From positions 3,808,001 to 3,872,000 of the forward strand of contig OZ241875.1 of assembly GCA_965203325.1 (NCBI GenBank): a DNA stretch of 64,000 bases, given 5' to 3'. Of this stretch, positions 48,041 to 55,943 are shown piece by piece; positions within the stretch are counted from its first letter, which is position 1; the number at the start of each line of letters is the position of its first letter. The translations under genes were made by a program, and so were the position numbers. The notes under the pieces are model-generated. The model saw only the letters and a program-made list of their open reading frames with translations. It made no database searches and was not told the DNA's origin. The stretch is from a bacterium. GTDB lineage: Bacteria > UBA8248.

Positions 48041-50458
48041 TCAATCTTTTGGTGCCATAGCTATACTAGTTTCGATGCGACGTTCGTAGTAGGCGATTTG
48101 TCGACTGATATCGGGATCTCCTACATTTTCTTCGGCTGTTTTCATTTTTTGTATCGCATCGTTAAATGTATCCAAATCTTTCTTTCGTTTGAATATTTCA
48201 ATTCCAATGTCACAGTAAGTAGATAACATATGCTTGTTTCCTGGATACCTATTCACACCGCTCACCGCTAATTCTCGTGCTCGATCAAGAATTACTAGAC
48301 GATCTTCATCCATAAGACCAGGCGCGTTTTTCGCACGCTCAAGAAAAAGGATTATCCGGTAGCGGTACACTGGCCCATCTTCACCAAAATCCTTGGAAAA
48401 AAGTCTAATCTCAGCTTCCGCTTCCTCAAATTGCCTCATGTCAATTAGGTTCTGAATCAAACGATGACGTGGTACTCTTTCCCCTGGAGCAACGGAGATC
48501 ATTTTTGCGAGCAAGCGATTTTGCTTGTGGCGATCTGCTATACGTCGGATACCAGTATTAACGCTGCAGAGTTGACGAAGTGTTCTCACTTCTATGTCAT
48601 AAATTGGATTAAGTGCACTAATAACCTGTTCGTATAAGTCAAAATAATTTTCCGTTTCGGCAAATTTATAATCGGCTATTATTTCCATGATTACACCGTG
48701 ACGCCCTCGCCAGCCGTAAATACCATCCCGCTCATTGACCACATACTCGCGGACGATTCCGTCCAAATGATCGAGAACAGCTGATATAGTTGTCATGTTT
48801 ATTCCTAATAAGCGAATTATCAACTGCCTGTGGACTCGTATTCCAGAACTTTCGAGTGCAGCCACGATCTTGTATATATCTTGATATTCTGAAGCGAGTA
48901 ATGCGTACTCACGCAAAAGAATGTCATCGAATTTCTCGGTCGCAAAAATGTTTTTAAGGCAGACAAACACATCTCGCTCACACCGTTCTTCAAGGCGGCG
49001 GCGCTGCTCTCCGGCAGAGAAATCCAGAAAGCTAGTATGAACGAGTTCTCGAACTGGAGTGCTGGTCTCAACCAACCGCAAAAGTTCAGTGATTTCATTC
49101 GCATTTAATTTTTCTAGCTCATAAATTTTTGAATTCGAGAATAATGCCGCTGATTTTATTCGGTGGTTCCAGCGATTTCGAGCTGACGAAACAACCACTC
49201 TTAAGTTCTTTATATCTGCGGCCGAAAGGGACTCAAACAAAATGTTGATTTCATGTAAGTGGCTATCACTGTCATCAATAAAGATAGCGCCATTTTTTCC
49301 TTCTTTCTCCAAATTCTTAGCTACATTAAGCCATTCATTGTGAAGAAGTTTATGATCTGACTTGTGTTCCCATAAATAGAAATTTCTCTTGGCTAAACTG
49401 TGCATGATTTGGCGCGCTGTAGTGGTTTTTCCAACGCCACCTGCTCCTAAAATAATTACTCCAAAGTGTTCGTTTTCGATAAGTTGCTTTTCTGCAATCT
49501 GTACTAAAGATCGCATGAACGTATTTCCAGAGGCTATGTCGCCGTAACTAGCCGGCCACCCGTTAAACATTTCACTTACGCGTGGAGGAAGTTGCGAACT
49601 ATGATGTACGTCTATTGTAATTGGAGAGAGGTAACGAGAGGCATCAAGCGGATCACTAGATTCTTCATATGCCGTGACTAAGTCAGGACCATGTTTAGTG
49701 AGGGATGCCGCAAATTCATCAATCCCAGCAAAGCACACTTTGAGTCCACGGATTTCATGCAGTTCAGCCCTTTCTTTGTTGGGAGTGTACATAAAAAGGT
49801 AAGTTGAACGGATGTTCATTGCCTGTTTACTGATAGATAATGCACGATTTACAATCTCTCTGATATATGGATCTGCCAAGGAATATCCGATAATAATTAA
49901 ATCCGCCCCTGCCAAATCTCGTTTTAATGAATCATAAAGATATTCTCGATATTCTTCGGTCAAGCTATAATCATTCTCGGTAATAATTAGCCGTGTCTTA
50001 CTTCCATCAGAAACGTCTTCTTCAATGCTGCCATGCAGTTTCATAAGCCGTAGTGAATTAGGCAACTTATCGGCATCGAAATCAAAATTTGATGCGTATA
50101 CTGCCAATGGTTCATTAAATCGCCCAAACGCTTGCTCAAGTAAATTGTCATAATTTGTTGTATAAATACTCTTCCATTTGAAGCGCGGAATAGTGAGTAA
50201 ACCACCAGTAGGCTCAATCCCAACAAAGAGTTCGCGCACGGCCTTAATCAAGTCCACTCGATTTCGACGTCTCTCTATAATGGCTGAAAGTTCGGGCAGA
50301 TTCAGGTCACTCGATTCGAGATCAAAATGTTGGGCAAGATGGTCACAGATTTGCATTGTACTTGGGGCACCAGATGGGATTGAAGAACCAGAGCCAAAAA
50401 GGAGTACTGTTTGTTCTGGATTGATTTCACTAACTAGTTGATCAATGGGAATTGGCAT
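48041..50458 (-). CDS. SIR2-like NADase + STAND NTPase + helical sensor (Avs5-like) defence protein
   Basis: LLFGSGSS, IYTTNYD, KLHGS, IIGYSLAD; Walker A GAGGVGKT; Walker B IFIDD; AT-rich. Confidence 0.8.
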   Translation of the reverse strand: MPIPIDQLVSEINPEQTVLLFGSGSSIPSGAPSTMQICDHLAQHFDLESSDLNLPELSAIIERRRNRVDLIKAVRELFVGIEPTGGLLTIPRFKWKSIYTTNYDNLLEQAFGRFNEPLAVYASNFDFDADKLPNSLRLMKLHGSIEEDVSDGSKTRLIITENDYSLTEEYREYLYDSLKRDLAGADLIIIGYSLADPYIREIVNRALSISKQAMNIRSTYLFMYTPNKERAELHEIRGLKVCFAGIDEFAASLTKHGPDLVTAYEESSDPLDASRYLSPITIDVHHSSQLPPRVSEMFNGWPASYGDIASGNTFMRSLVQIAEKQLIENEHFGVIILGAGGVGKTTTARQIMHSLAKRNFYLWEHKSDHKLLHNEWLNVAKNLEKEGKNGAIFIDDSDSHLHEINILFESLSAADIKNLRVVVSSARNRWNHRIKSAALFSNSKIYELEKLNANEITELLRLVETSTPVRELVHTSFLDFSAGEQRRRLEERCERDVFVCLKNIFATEKFDDILLREYALLASEYQDIYKIVAALESSGIRVHRQLIIRLLGINMTTISAVLDHLDGIVREYVVNERDGIYGWRGRHGVIMEIIADYKFAETENYFDLYEQVISALNPIYDIEVRTLRQLCSVNTGIRRIADRHKQNRLLAKMISVAPGERVPRHRLIQNLIDMRQFEEAEAEIRLFSKDFGEDGPVYRYRIILFLERAKNAPGLMDEDRLVILDRARELAVSGVNRYPGNKHMLSTYCDIGIEIFKRKKDLDTFNDAIQKMKTAEENVGDPDISRQIAYYERRIETSIAMAPKD

Positions 50459-50678
50459 TCTAGTTGTTGTCCTTTTATCCTCGTGCCCACGCCTAGAATA
50501 GAAAAAGGGGATTGAAGTACGTGTGCAAGTTGCTTCTTCATTCAATGCCCATCATCAATTTAATCCATTTTCAAACCAAGTCCAAGTCACACCGTTATTT
50601 GCCATTTTTTGGTTTCACATGCCAATTCAATTGAGCAAGTGATGTATATAATTCCCTAAATTTTTCTTAGTCAATGGA

Positions 50679-52980: not shown

Positions 52981-53120
52981 GATTTGGTCTTTCCAATGAA
53001 ATGCTCAGCATCATTCACCCGCAATTCTACCGACACGAGTTTCGGCAGCAGGGTATCACGCAGGGCGGTGAGGGCACGATATTCCGCAATGTTGGACTTT
53101 ATTACAGCATCAAAGGACCG
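52977..53120 (-). pseudogene. hsdS: Type I R-M specificity subunit (HsdS) C-terminal remnant
   Basis: LTALRDTLLPKLVS.ELRV is the conserved HsdS C-terminus; cut off at the IS110-type end. Confidence 0.75.
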
Positions 53121-53345
53121 TGAATGGACGCGCCCCAAAATGCAAGCCTTGTCTTGGACAGTTCGGCGCAATACAGTCTGGCTCAGTCGTGTATTCGGCC
53201 TCTCGATTGCGGTGCTTCATCCTGGCCGCGGTCCCGTATGGAGATGCGAGGACCGGGGCCATATCGCTTACGCGAACTTGAAAGGTCTCCGTTCAGCTCT
53301 TGGTTTGCTTGCTCCCGTCTCGATGACCGTAAGTGGACGTACATG
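53121..53345 (-). mobile_element. IS110/IS1111-type non-coding right end (bridge/seek RNA-like region), no transposase, copy 1
   Basis: CAAGTTCGCGTAAGCGATATGGCCCCGGTCC..ATCTCCATACGGG..GGCCGAATACACGACTG..CTTGCATTTTGGGGCGCGTCCAT. Confidence 0.65.
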
Positions 53346-53452
53346 GACACCCACATAGGCTATATATACCCGCACTCGGCGAGTCGATGCAGACGAGCGT
53401 GGCATGATAGGATATATGGCCCGTGATCGGGAGCGGGTGAATCAGGGACAAC

Positions 53453-54505
53453 ATGAGGGATTCGTCGTCCATGATCGTGCCGAACAACGAGGGTAGGGTG
53501 TGCGACGCAGTCCTCAGGACCCTCGAAAAATGGACACGCGAGACGCGCTCGGATGTCCGTCATCCCGATAAGGAGGGAGACACTCCTCCCGTCGATCTGC
53601 GTCTGAAGCTCGGCTCCCGGGAATATGCGATTGAGCACACTCGGGTAGAGTCGATCGAAAATCAGATTACGACCGTGGTCGTCGCGAACCAAATCATCGA
53701 GCACATCAGAAAAGCTATCCCGGAGCCATTCTCAAGCCTGGCCTACTACGAACTGCAATTCCCAACCGACGTTTCCCTGCCCAAAGGCCGAGTCAAAAAA
53801 AGAGAACGAGCACTTGGTGATCTCGTCGAATGGCTCCACGCGAGCGAGAAAACCCTGCACGAGCGGAACTCCGGCCAAATCTTATCAATCCGCAATCCTT
53901 ATCGGTCCGATGATCGTATCCATGGAACCCCGCCGGGATTTGAGTGTGAATTCGAACTGCTGCAATGGCCGAGTGCACGGCTCGTGCAACGAAAGCCAGG
54001 CTCACTCTCGTTCAGGTTCATTCCTCCGGACGATATGGAGGGTCCGCGAGTGGGCAGTCTCCGGCATGCCTTGTCCAGGAAATGCCCCAAGCTTCAGGCC
54101 TGCAAGGCGGACGGCGCGCGTACCGTTCTGGTTTTGGAAAGCGGTGACCCGGGCCTTACGAGCTTCGAATTCCGCGAAGACCTTCTTCCTTCACTGCTAT
54201 CAGCGTGCACAAATACGCCGGACGAGATATTCCTGGTGGAAACCCGCAGAGAACGCTGGTCGGTGCAGTTGCTCAAGCGTGACGAGGCCCATTGGCCTGA
54301 CACCGGAATGCCCGAAATGGGCGGTCTCTACTACGACCCCGCTCCATCGCCCCTGCCGGGTATACCCGAATGGCTTGACAGCTTTCCCCAGGGGATGCGC
54401 TACGCCTTGCAACTGGACCACATGTATACGCCCTTCTTGCCGGGGTGGGCTCCTAAAACCTTCGAGAAAGGCGAATTGTCCGATCTGACGGCAACACCGG
54501 CGTAA
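53453..54505 (+). CDS. Hypothetical protein with a PD-(D/E)xK-like motif
   Basis: NEGRVCD...PVDLRLKLGSREYAIEHT...KCPKL...RTVLVLE. Confidence 0.6.
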   Translation: MRDSSSMIVPNNEGRVCDAVLRTLEKWTRETRSDVRHPDKEGDTPPVDLRLKLGSREYAIEHTRVESIENQITTVVVANQIIEHIRKAIPEPFSSLAYYELQFPTDVSLPKGRVKKRERALGDLVEWLHASEKTLHERNSGQILSIRNPYRSDDRIHGTPPGFECEFELLQWPSARLVQRKPGSLSFRFIPPDDMEGPRVGSLRHALSRKCPKLQACKADGARTVLVLESGDPGLTSFEFREDLLPSLLSACTNTPDEIFLVETRRERWSVQLLKRDEAHWPDTGMPEMGGLYYDPAPSPLPGIPEWLDSFPQGMRYALQLDHMYTPFLPGWAPKTFEKGELSDLTATPA

Positions 54506-54529
54506 CCACCATGCCCGAACAATCATCGA

Positions 54530-54755
54530 AAGACGTGTAAGGGAAAATGGTCAATCAGACAGGAACGGGAAAATCCGGGCATACGAAGAACTCTCAAGCT
54601 CGCGTAAGCGATATGGCCCCGGTCCGCGTATCTCCATACGGGCTCGCGGCGAGTAAAAAAACGTAAAAGAGAAGCCGGACATACGGCTGTACCTGATCAC
54701 CAACCTCGAAGTTTTCAAAAGACTTGCTTGCATCAACTGGCGCGTCCACATATGG
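54530..54755 (+). mobile_element. IS110/IS1111-type non-coding right end, no transposase, copy 2
   Basis: CAAGCTCGCGTAAGCGATATGGCCCCGGTCC..ATCTCCATACGGG..AGCCGGACATACGGCTG..CTTGCATCAACTGGCGCGTCCAC; inverted relative to copy 1. Confidence 0.65.
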
Positions 54756-54929: not shown

Positions 54930-55943
54930 GTGAAGCCGAAGTTTGATCCTGCTGAATTTGTTCGACGCGTTGGGCGCGATTTGGTGAGTTCCTTTGAGTC
55001 TGCACGTGAAGCCACTACACCTGGGCTTGTCGGGGGCGCAATCGAAAATGCGGTTCGGAACCGACTAGAGCAGATACTACCGAGAGGAATCGGCGTAGGC
55101 ACCGGCTGCGTGATTGATATTCACGGAGGCACTAGTCGTCAAATAGACGTCGTTTTGTACGAGAAAGAACTGTGCCCAAGATTCTCCGTTAATGAGAATT
55201 CAGAGACAAGTTATTTTCCTGTGGAATCTGTGCTCGCCGTCGGTGAGGTCAAGAGTGTTATCGGGAAAGTGGAACTTAATGACGCTTTCAAGAAAATCGC
55301 TTCCGTGAAATCGCTCTATAGATCATTTGAGAAGATGGATGGCAACGTGTATGTAGGCAGGCGGTATAGCGATAGTGGTTCTGCAACAGCACTTGGGTTT
55401 TATCGAGATAATACCAACTTGGGTGATGTCCTTGGATTCGTACTGGCAGAGAGATCTAATATCACCATAACCTTGCCCGACCCCTCGAAGACACACAAGT
55501 CCGCTCCGAAGGCAACACTCTTGGGGCATTACGTTGAGAATGTAACAACGCTAAACAACGATGTGCTGTGTCCTGATACGGTAGTCTTTCTTGATGGTAC
55601 TGTTTTGGTTCCTTATGCGGCGAACGGATTGACTCCTTATGTAGCCGCCAGAGTGCGAAATGTGCTGCCACATCTTATTCATCCAGTTAAGGCCGATTCG
55701 CCATTCGGAGAACTCATCAAGACAATTTGGAAGCGACACCGGGAAGGAATTACAGCACACATACCACTAGAGAGATACCTGCACTTCGAAGCTAAGACGG
55801 AACCGAAATTGACGTGGGCCGTGATTGCCAATTTTCACCAACCGGACCAAAATGAACTGAAGGTGGGGGAGCGATTAGAAATCACGACACCGACCGACCA
55901 CCTTAGAAGTGATTTGCAGTATCTGGCGAGAAATAGAACATAG
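54930..55943 (+). CDS. DUF6602-like PD-(D/E)xK nuclease-fold protein
   Basis: GGAIE..VR..L..ILP...G.VID...SRQIDVVLYE...FPVESVLAVGEVKS. Confidence 0.7.
   Translation: MKPKFDPAEFVRRVGRDLVSSFESAREATTPGLVGGAIENAVRNRLEQILPRGIGVGTGCVIDIHGGTSRQIDVVLYEKELCPRFSVNENSETSYFPVESVLAVGEVKSVIGKVELNDAFKKIASVKSLYRSFEKMDGNVYVGRRYSDSGSATALGFYRDNTNLGDVLGFVLAERSNITITLPDPSKTHKSAPKATLLGHYVENVTTLNNDVLCPDTVVFLDGTVLVPYAANGLTPYVAARVRNVLPHLIHPVKADSPFGELIKTIWKRHREGITAHIPLERYLHFEAKTEPKLTWAVIANFHQPDQNELKVGERLEITTPTDHLRSDLQYLARNRT

Follow-up and report, generated by a model that had tools for sequence, protein, structure and literature searches.

Two outward-pointing guide-RNA regions around a stand-alone gene as probable relics of an IS1111-type insertion sequence family

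A 64-kb window of genome G000 (C1:3808001-3872000; the prefix w marks a position in this window) was analysed around an open reading frame, ORF350, which lies between two related non-coding sequences termed copy 1 and copy 2 (Table 1). Homology of both copies to the non-coding region (NCR) and right end of IS1111-type insertion sequences (ISs) was well supported by sequence comparison. The two copies are probably separate orphan relics of such a family, each retaining a seekRNA region with a right end, and not the two ends of one element, although considerable doubt attaches to this reading. A cargo transposon formed by the gene and its flanking copies was not supported.

Repeat analysis of the window revealed two pairs of inverted arms surrounding the open reading frame (w53453-54505), the first 71 nt long with 87% complementarity (w53222-53292 and w54583-54653) and the second 23 nt long (w53125-53147 and w54726-54748). 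Copy 1 (w53110-53332, minus strand) and copy 2 (w54527-54758, plus strand) point outward, and their alignment demonstrated a mean column identity of 79%, with conserved blocks and variable segments between them. A 25-nt core had exactly two occurrences in the 64 kb, and 100 shuffles gave none. The arms, the alignment and the core thus bear out the description in an earlier note on this DNA of shared blocks with differing segments between them, both pointing outward. The same note had placed the reading frame where a recombinase would precede copy 2, and indeed it ends 21 nt before the homology of copy 2 begins.

A complete IS of 1400 bp was found in the same genome as two identical copies (C1:20510-21909 and C1:1532504-1533903). 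Its protein of 341-383 amino acids matched PF01548 (DEDD_Tnp_IS110) and PF02371 (Transposase_20), and the translation contained the motif GLVPRQHTTGG, which fits the IS1111-family motif GL-P----S(t)G described by Siddiquee et al. 2024 (PMC11187229). The transposase gene of this resident IS is followed by an NCR of approximately 290 nt, which was 75% identical to copy 1 over 211 nt and 71% identical to copy 2 over 133 nt, and the subterminal inverted repeats of the IS are ATGGACGCC and GGCGTCCAT. In the genus comparison set of 23 genomes (this genome and 22 others), the NCR was present in 15 genomes; in 16 of 19 related loci it immediately followed a transposase sharing 70-82% identity with that of the resident IS, and the other three loci were fragments without a transposase.

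When the window was searched by nhmmer with a model of the full IS, copy 1 (w53332-53110) matched model positions 1177-1397 with an E value of 1e-55, and copy 2 (w54527-54758) matched positions 1158-1392 with an E value of 1.3e-35. Only these two NCRs were matched and no transposase remnant was detected in the window by this model; both copies can therefore be described as 5'-truncated NCRs with right ends. This confirms the assignment to IS110/IS1111 non-coding ends made from the letters alone, since both copies are homologous to an NCR found behind a DEDD transposase in this genome and in the genus. The nearest transposase-linked relatives were a five-copy IS in G022 for copy 1 (84%) and an IS in G016 for copy 2 (81%). 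The Rfam search, which detects a family only if it has been curated, was negative at E<=1 in w50000-58000, and nothing reached the gathering score over the whole window.

The guide layout of the family was derived from ten transposase-linked ISs and their flanks; these ISs are related to each other, so the counts of guides matching flanks overstate their independence. The family left end consisted of CG, ATGGG and (A/G)TGGACGC, the right end of GCGTCCA, 4 nt and CG, and the core dinucleotide was CG. The left guide comprised five variable nt followed by CGAT, which correspond to the left flank, the CG and the first two letters of the left end; its mean identity to the left flank was 4.2 of 5 nt in nine cognate pairs, compared with 1.47 in 81 non-cognate pairs. 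Approximately 30 nt upstream of it, the right guide ended in CG (TG in one IS) and equalled the reverse complement of the right flank, with exact matches of at least 6 nt in 6/10 cognate pairs against 3% of the non-cognate ones. Further downstream, a donor guide of four letters and CG equalled the 4 nt behind the right subterminal repeat in 10/10 cases (29% of non-cognate pairs). In the ten linked ISs, the seekRNA segments matched both strands of their own target with the top-strand match first, the same order as that published for IS1111-type seekRNAs, in which the top-strand match lies 5' of the bottom-strand match (PMC11187229). The layout of target guides, donor guide and core thus appears to be directly legible from natural insertions, a conclusion that is well supported. 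As the NCR carries guide segments which track the flanks of each IS, the suggestion that the guide RNA is encoded in the 3' non-coding end agrees with these results.

Consensus folding with RNAalifold placed both target guides in one large loop closed by a stem of 14 pairs, which is built on conserved complementary blocks with little covariation; changes on both sides were present in 2/33 pairs, a score equalled by 36/500 shuffles. Folding of single sequences gave z-scores of -0.58 for copy 1 and +0.53 for copy 2, and the NCR linked to the transposase of the resident IS scored +1.14, so that folding energy is uninformative here. In three other genomes (loci L063, L067 and L073 of G018, G004 and G020), a full NCR was followed by a tandem partial second NCR starting near the donor-guide segment, at about positions 168-250 of the NCR-only model, which suggests that the DNA encoding the guides itself takes part in recombination. 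Five 145-nt matches in G013 were considered as MITEs (miniature transposable elements with inverted repeats) beginning at the left guide and were ruled out, because a transposase lies upstream of them and they belong to full ISs.

Against this layout, both copies retained all three guide segments. The left guide GTAAG was common to both, and the right guides differed from each other and from that of the resident IS. The description of orphan guide RNAs with different target loops therefore fits the sequence, the copies differing in one guide. The donor guide of copy 2 matched its own end in 4/4 letters (CATA), and that of copy 1 was one letter off (TACA against TTCA). The earlier expectation of complementarity between loops and flanks was not borne out, as neither right flank fitted its own right guide when compared in register by eye (3/8 nt for copy 1 and 1/8 nt for copy 2); the putative left flank of copy 2 matched the left guide in 5/5 nt. 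Among 113 family-invariant columns, changes were counted at 16 in copy 2 and 9 in copy 1, while in leave-one-out comparisons nine linked ISs showed 1-3 and the tenth, L064, showed 11. Of the 33 predicted pairs, 8 were broken in copy 2 and 5 in copy 1, compared with none in seven linked copies, one in two and three in L064. This excess of changes looks like relaxed constraint in both copies. The promoter scan yielded 0 sites. The right flank of copy 2, read on the minus strand, was tried as the missing 5' part of the NCR of copy 1 and rejected, as nhmmer found nothing there.

It could be argued that the orphan copies are kept for RNAs acting in trans, either as extra target specificities for the resident transposase or as decoys damping transposition. 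All guide segments are present, the right guides are distinct, and according to PMC11187229 a seekRNA does not seem to be strictly limited to transposases of >70% identity. The excess changes, however, affect family-invariant columns as well as the stem that encloses the target loop, and the predicted 15-nt targets of the two copies had no site in this genome at <=1 mismatch; at <=2 mismatches there were 4 and 2 sites, none of them in a repeat family. Copy 1 is moreover dispensable in the strain of run X6. Retention for such RNAs is accordingly regarded as very improbable.

A possible left-end inverted repeat had been reported at w53343, and ATGGACACC is indeed found at w53343-53351. Alignment of w53330-53460 with the family left ends by MAFFT revealed no homology beyond the repeat motif, which differed from the family left end in spacing and in its first five nt, and a family-type left end (CG, ATGGG, (A/G)TGGACGC) was not found at the cassette; the right repeat GCGTCCA was present in both copies. 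Read on the minus strand, w53350-53328 consists of GTGTCCA-TGTA-CG-TCCACTTA-CG followed by copy 1. The GTGTCCA-TGTA part is a right end of the resident IS type and TCCACTTA is the last 8 nt of a copy-2-type right end, which reads TCCACATA in the other cassette copies. Furthermore, the 15-mer GTCCATGTACGTCCA (w53334-53348), present in all cassette copies, recurred exactly in L096 (G005) and L070/L091 (G012), where it stands behind true 3' ends of the NCR. Given the lack of left-end homology beyond the motif and the position of the 15-mer elsewhere, the segment w53330-53350, which contains the reported motif, would be a stack of CG-joined right-end scars, with the CG inside the subterminal repeat probably serving as a pseudo-core. 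The motif itself thus stood, and its reading as a left end gave way to that of a minus-strand right-end scar with a 15-mer match in two other genomes. In a related observation, L095 (G022 C1:~1192600) carried the simple right end GTCGTCCA-CATA, and L096 (G005 C2:~56650), at the same chromosomal site, carried a 10-nt insert, TCCATGTACG, inside the subterminal repeat which is lacking in L095. The insert looks like the footprint of an insertion at the CG of the repeat itself, followed by imprecise removal.

The stretch holding the gene, the scar stack and parts of both copies (w53233-54580) recurs as copy B at C1:4227855-4229215 and copy C, reversed, at C1:1997821-1999189, with 87.5-88% identity, and twice in G012 with 90%, which gives the gene three occurrences in this genome and two in G012. 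One right junction was common to the four other cassette copies, as were the flanks or flanking repeat families. Their left junction was identical in three of the four, with L016 (G012) keeping slightly more of copy 1. The right NCR of these copies ended after approximately 50 nt, where 9 nt (AATCCGGGC) are identical to a multi-copy repeat of the chromosome, and had no right end. Their left NCR ended after about 100-125 nt, beside a 160-bp repeat. Copies B and C were 91% identical over 2988 nt including the flanks, and their junctions showed microhomologies of 4 nt and 9 nt with approximately 75 nt of chromosome replaced. The four copies trace back to a single event followed by segmental copying, and not to repeated transposition.

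The site of B and C is the usual target region of the IS family: full ISs in G022 and G013 lie directly behind the same 160-bp repeat, the unoccupied site being GGGGTAAG-CG-TTTATCC. The 160-bp repeat had no Rfam match in locus L014. Copies B and C are embedded in a repeat family upstream of a 1644-amino-acid surface-protein-like reading frame. G000 is highly repetitive, and this upstream region recurs with 88-95% identity at >=6 places. The observation refers to w56465-61399 and w61695-63285 in the window and to many places in G000.

These results bear on the main suggestion of the earlier note, a possible non-autonomous cargo unit guided by RNA and mobilised in trans; such a unit would consist of the gene together with copy 2 or both copies, and the resident IS1111-type transposase would move it. 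The gene occupies the position of a transposase and is followed by an NCR and a right end with a matching donor guide. GTAAG stands to the left of w53334 with TG at both borders, the gene is multiplied in two genomes, and for ISEc11 a cargo between a left end of 84 bp and a right end of 71 bp was moved in trans according to PMC11187229. The missing family-type left end, whose supposed motif agrees exactly over a 15-mer with right-end scars in other places, and the right flank of copy 2 with its single matching nucleotide argue against such a unit, as do the four other copies of one event with a common right junction, no right end and both NCRs truncated. Copy 1 is also separable, since the X6 contig keeps the gene and copy 2, and such ends were absent from 30 loci of ORF350 relatives. 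A search of the other 22 genus genomes for the flanks of the locus, as an empty site for the gene and copy 2, gave no DNA match, and no empty site is known. A cargo transposon is considered improbable.

The 209-bp segment forming copy 1 could be followed between strains by using contigs of four public runs placed on w52400-55600. In one X6 contig (record 23; 2114 nt, depth 4.7), w52411-53115 was joined to w53325-53536 and the 209 nt w53116-53324 were absent. No letters stood between the joined parts, and six ambiguous letters, GACCGT (ACGGTC on the minus strand), fitted either side. Because the joint shares only six letters, an assembly artefact of a 31-mer graph appears unlikely. The hexamer ACGGTC (minus strand), which holds the CG core, lies at both borders of copy 1 (w53116-53121 and w53325-53330): one X6 border coincides exactly with the right junction that the ten ISs predict (repeat, TTCA and CG), and the other with the conserved ACGGTC that begins the NCR. 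Copy 1 was retained in the X3 and X4 contigs, copy 2 was present in X3, X4 and X6, and X6 also retained the gene. The other cassette copies carried copy 1 at the same junction as the window, so the module predates the separation of the strains and X6 probably represents a loss, which could be due either to recombinase excision at the two CGs or to slippage between the hexamers. We infer, tentatively, that the recombinase made the difference. In X3, a loose contig end left the copy-2-like sequence exactly after w54752 and continued as CG+TTCGCTGG.

Such borders raise the possibility that seekRNA and right-end modules like copy 1 are MITE-like hitchhikers, mobilised in trans by the resident transposase through recombination of the CG core at the right junction with the CG of the conserved ACGGTC that opens the NCR. 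The segment is bordered by ACGGTC on both sides and cleanly absent from a related strain contig, its 3' border coincides exactly with the junction position that ten full ISs gave independently, and a second orphan by a tRNA gene (L089/L090) begins at the same ACGGTC, model position 1176. A precedent is offered by the ssr9-only minicircles of ISPpu9, registered as MITEPpu9 (PMC12288879). On the other side, the 5' end of the module (GTCATCGAG...) is unlike the invariant family left end (ATGGG and the repeat), the guides of copy 1 mismatch its own site, and other orphans begin at five other positions. The 6-bp direct repeat would allow the same deletion by replication slippage; copies B and C carry copy 1 at the same junction, so that X6 is a loss which slippage explains equally well, and the strain evidence is a single contig with a depth of 4.7. 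Hitchhiking modules are thus judged rather unlikely. A broader and somewhat speculative idea, to which we give similarly low credence, is that the guide-RNA gene and right end together form a mobile module and that the recombinase takes CG dinucleotides within conserved sequences of the element as pseudo-cores, in ACGGTC where the NCR begins and in G-CG-TCCA within the right subterminal repeat, thereby shedding, stacking and removing seekRNA modules.

Nine other orphan NCR loci were found by comparing the coordinates of NCR matches with those of transposase matches and inspecting the nine that lacked a full transposase. They started at six model positions, 1046, 1116 (two), 1176 (two), 1220, 1232 (two) and 1251; the pairs at 1116 and 1176 are each one locus seen in two genomes, and those at 1232 are two loci. 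Only L089 (G011) and L090 (G010) shared the start of copy 1. In both genomes this is a decayed orphan NCR with a right end, which occupies one and the same locus immediately after a tRNA gene (Rfam tRNA, 57.4 bits). Nine loci without a full transposase indicate that members of the family commonly lose the transposase and keep the 3' module.

Several observations weigh against separate, decaying relics. The excess changes may reflect divergence of lineages and not decay, as L064, the linked IS closest to copy 2, itself differs at 11 columns, and the structure in which broken pairs were counted is only weakly covarying (2/33 pairs, as given above). Copy 2 still has a donor guide matched to its own end and carries one compensatory pair change, from C-G to U-A. 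GTAAG, the left guide of both copies, occurs at w53329-53333, just before the scar stack, and TG occurs at both w53334-53335 and w53753-53754, which together fit a plus-strand element inserted at a half-matching target. Finally, the clean 209-bp difference suggests that a module without a transposase was recently handled by a recombinase and is not simply dead DNA.

With these reservations, the origin of the locus as two separate relics may be pictured as follows. Copy 1 would be a self-contained piece of 209 bp, running from the internal ACGGTC of the NCR to a normal right junction (subterminal repeat, 4 nt and CG), and would lie behind two older right-end scars on the minus strand, all of them joined at CG, an arrangement that suggests repeated recombinase events at one spot. 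Copy 2 would be a module from another sublineage with a different truncation, joined on 21 nt after the end of a stand-alone gene. The gene would not be habitual IS cargo, its linkage to the module having arisen once in this lineage, and the cassette would then have been copied, with both modules shortened, into the repeat family that is the usual target region of the IS family. The modules are presumably decaying and no longer acting.

Table 1. Coordinates of the features discussed, as window positions unless a contig is named
Feature	Position	Strand	Basis or details
Repeated stretch comprising gene, scar stack, roughly 100-125 nt from copy 1 and the opening 50 nt from copy 2	53233..54580	plus	
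Copy 1 module, 5'-truncated seekRNA region and right end RE1	53116..53324	minus	209 bp; nhmmer, guide positions, X6 contig
Copy 1 right-target guide	53290-53298	minus	AGCTGAA+CG
Copy 1 left-target guide	53265-53271	minus	GTAAG+CG
Copy 1 donor guide	53188-53193	minus	TACA+CG
Copy 1 right end	53119-53131	minus	subterminal repeat GCGTCCA 53125-53131; TTCA 53121-53124; core CG 53119-53120
Copy 2, 5'-truncated seekRNA region and right end RE2	54527..54752	plus	nhmmer, guide positions, X3 contig
Copy 2 right-target guide	54577-54585	plus	GGGCATA+CG
Copy 2 left-target guide	54604-54610	plus	GTAAG+CG
Copy 2 donor guide	54678-54683	plus	CATA+CG
Copy 2 right end	54742-54754	plus	subterminal repeat GCGTCCA 54742-54748; CATA 54749-54752; TG at core position 54753-54754
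Putative right-end scar stack	53330..53350	minus	GTGTCCA+TGTA 53340-53350; CG 53338-53339; TCCACTTA 53330-53337; CG 53328-53329 into copy 1
ORF350, stand-alone gene of an unnamed, widely spread family	53453..54505	plus	probable true start 53471 (MIVPNNEG)
Type I restriction S-subunit remnant, about last 45 codons	52977..53118	minus	abuts right end of copy 1
DUF6602 / NucC-like nuclease gene	54930..55943	plus	Pfam PF20247, E 3.9e-22; PADLOC PD_DExK and NucC models
SIR2 and STAND NTPase gene	48041..50545	minus	Pfam SIR2_2, E 7e-27; nSTAND_NTPase5, E 3.8e-15; PADLOC ThsA-like
160-bp repeat family	G000 C1:4227677-4227835, 2080392-2080550, 1825017-1825175, 453856-454021		just upstream of sites of IS family and cassette copies B/C

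ORF350 had no match in Pfam, PADLOC or NCBIfam. The start in Table 1 is likely because aligned relatives without the N-terminal extension begin there. The search for relatives returned 260 proteins at E<=0.001, none of them named, and the protein atlas contained unnamed clusters only. Among 61 related genomes, three including this one carried the gene, one of these only at E 8.9e-4, and 44 loci of relatives were distributed across many phyla. The neighbours of the relatives varied and included restriction, PIN, RES, AbiEii-type and HEPN genes, integrases and transposases, with no conserved partner. In one case (L049, OZ241374.1), a relative was located between dnaN and gyrB, which is unusual for an accessory gene.

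The AlphaFold2 model of ORF350 had a predicted local distance difference test score of 82.6. Comparison of the model by VIA-align gave middling Z values, with PaqCI at 8.6 (130 aligned residues, root-mean-square deviation 3.9), followed by XisH-like 2okf (7.2), CdiA-CT (7.2), MspJI (6.3) and NucC (5.9); by the tool's own remark, a Z of 7-8 is typical for a best match without true kinship. Foldseek against PDB yielded no match at E<=0.001. An alignment of 22 sequences showed no variation at E61, H62, T63 and E229 and hardly any at D48 and E57, residues that lie on adjacent strands; compared with a catalytic D ... (D/E)xK motif, the third position was T and not K. A nuclease fold, with weak PD-(D/E)xK-like matches, is plausible from the predicted model. 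The earlier label of a nuclease-fold cargo gene is thus sustained in so far as restriction-endonuclease folds were matched, at a middling level that leaves the fold unproven; the cargo role found no support.

A protein that uses the adjoining IS-derived RNAs as guides, that is, an exapted RNA-guided nuclease, would be suggested by adjacency only, the gene being linked to the first 50 nt of copy 2 in 5/5 cassette copies. The NCR model had no match in 30 distant loci of relatives (L017-L037, L039, L040, L043, L044, L046-L049), and comparable flanking inverted repeats were found at none of them. With no conserved partner, and with the RNA gene behind the reading frame reduced to a 50-nt stub in 4/5 cassette copies, this reading is close to refuted and hardly credible.

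The locus lies in a defence island, between the SIR2-STAND and the DUF6602/NucC-like genes. The truncated hsdS noted earlier at the left end could be recognised as a C-terminal S-subunit peptide: w52980-53120 (minus strand) matched the C-termini of S subunits in five proteins at E<=0.01 among 45 candidates, four of the five carrying PF01420, with a best match of 68% identity (E 8e-6) and a solid tblastn segment at w52989-53090 (70%). Searches of Pfam, NCBIfam and PDB sequences with the peptide gave no S-subunit match, and the HsdS of this genome bore no resemblance to it. Beside the remnant, a 385-amino-acid reading frame (w51823-52980, minus strand) had no match in Pfam, PADLOC or NCBIfam and contained an E-x-K-like stretch, FYVETKAID, seen by eye. 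The X3, X4 and X6 contigs all ceased to match left of w52411, inside this frame, which marks a breakpoint of the island at strain level. A right end resembling copy 2 was present in X4, 1466 nt further upstream.

The family can be compared with systems known from other bacteria. For the bridge RNA of IS621, Durrant et al. 2024 reportedly proposed a two-loop model with left and right target and donor guides around a core dinucleotide. The family studied here is similar in having separate target and donor guides that share a core dinucleotide, CG in this case. It differs in three respects, as its RNA is encoded 3' of the gene, its guides come in the reverse order and it has subterminal repeats. 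Handshake guides have been described in the IS621 bridge RNA by Hiraizumi et al. 2026 (PMC13626964), and the AT after the left guide, which equals the first letters of the left end, resembles such a guide as it is presented there.

In terms of the published features given in PMC11187229, and not of sequence alignment to ISfinder entries, ISEc11, ISKpn4 and ISPa11 of the IS1111 group resemble the resident family in the long NCR behind the transposase, the subterminal inverted repeats, the guide order, the GL-P----TG transposase motif and target-specific insertion. The copies in the window differ from them in having neither transposase nor left end and in guides that misfit the flanks. For ISPpu9, Pares-Guillen et al. 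2025 (PMC12288879) describe ssr9 as flanked by copies of both IS-end boxes, not a guide RNA and dispensable for transposition. As in MITEPpu9, a small-RNA gene that normally stands behind an IS110-family transposase also occurs alone in copy 1, modules are joined at a fixed dinucleotide, and a single module may be lost or gained; presence and absence between strains with CG at both borders was likewise observed for copy 1, in one contig with a depth of 4.7. Unlike the MITEPpu9 of that account, copy 1 is the guide-RNA gene itself, has only a right end, and takes an internal ACGGTC as its 5' border. A further parallel is QMITE2 of Coxiella burnetii, reported by Wachter et al. 2018 (PMC5896051) as a target of IS1111 and not derived from its ends; it is likewise a short repeat family tied to IS1111 biology, as is the 160-bp repeat beside the IS insertions here. 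A limited search for orphan or non-autonomous IS110/IS1111 guide modules gave ISPpu9/MITEPpu9 (PMC12288879) as the nearest case, and no description of orphan IS1111 seekRNA modules was found in the literature it covered.

The analysis describes a new IS1111 subfamily from an uncultured genus which, going by run labels only, is apparently associated with sponges. No new kind of cargo transposon emerges from the locus. The ORF350 family (>=260 proteins, in defence islands and other variable spots) may merit a test of its own. The more interesting point is that the guide-RNA module may itself be handled by the recombinase, an idea that rests on one contig and on the exact agreement of its borders with the core positions of the family; that contig gives a hint that a guide module can be removed cleanly at the core dinucleotide. 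If pseudo-cores do make such modules mobile, orphan guide RNAs with new target specificities would be scattered around genes such as ORF350. The locus and its relatives provide natural cases of guide-RNA genes outliving their transposase, and since the guide RNAs of IS110/IS1111 elements are a current tool for genome editing, it is useful to learn how their encoding and loss vary in nature.

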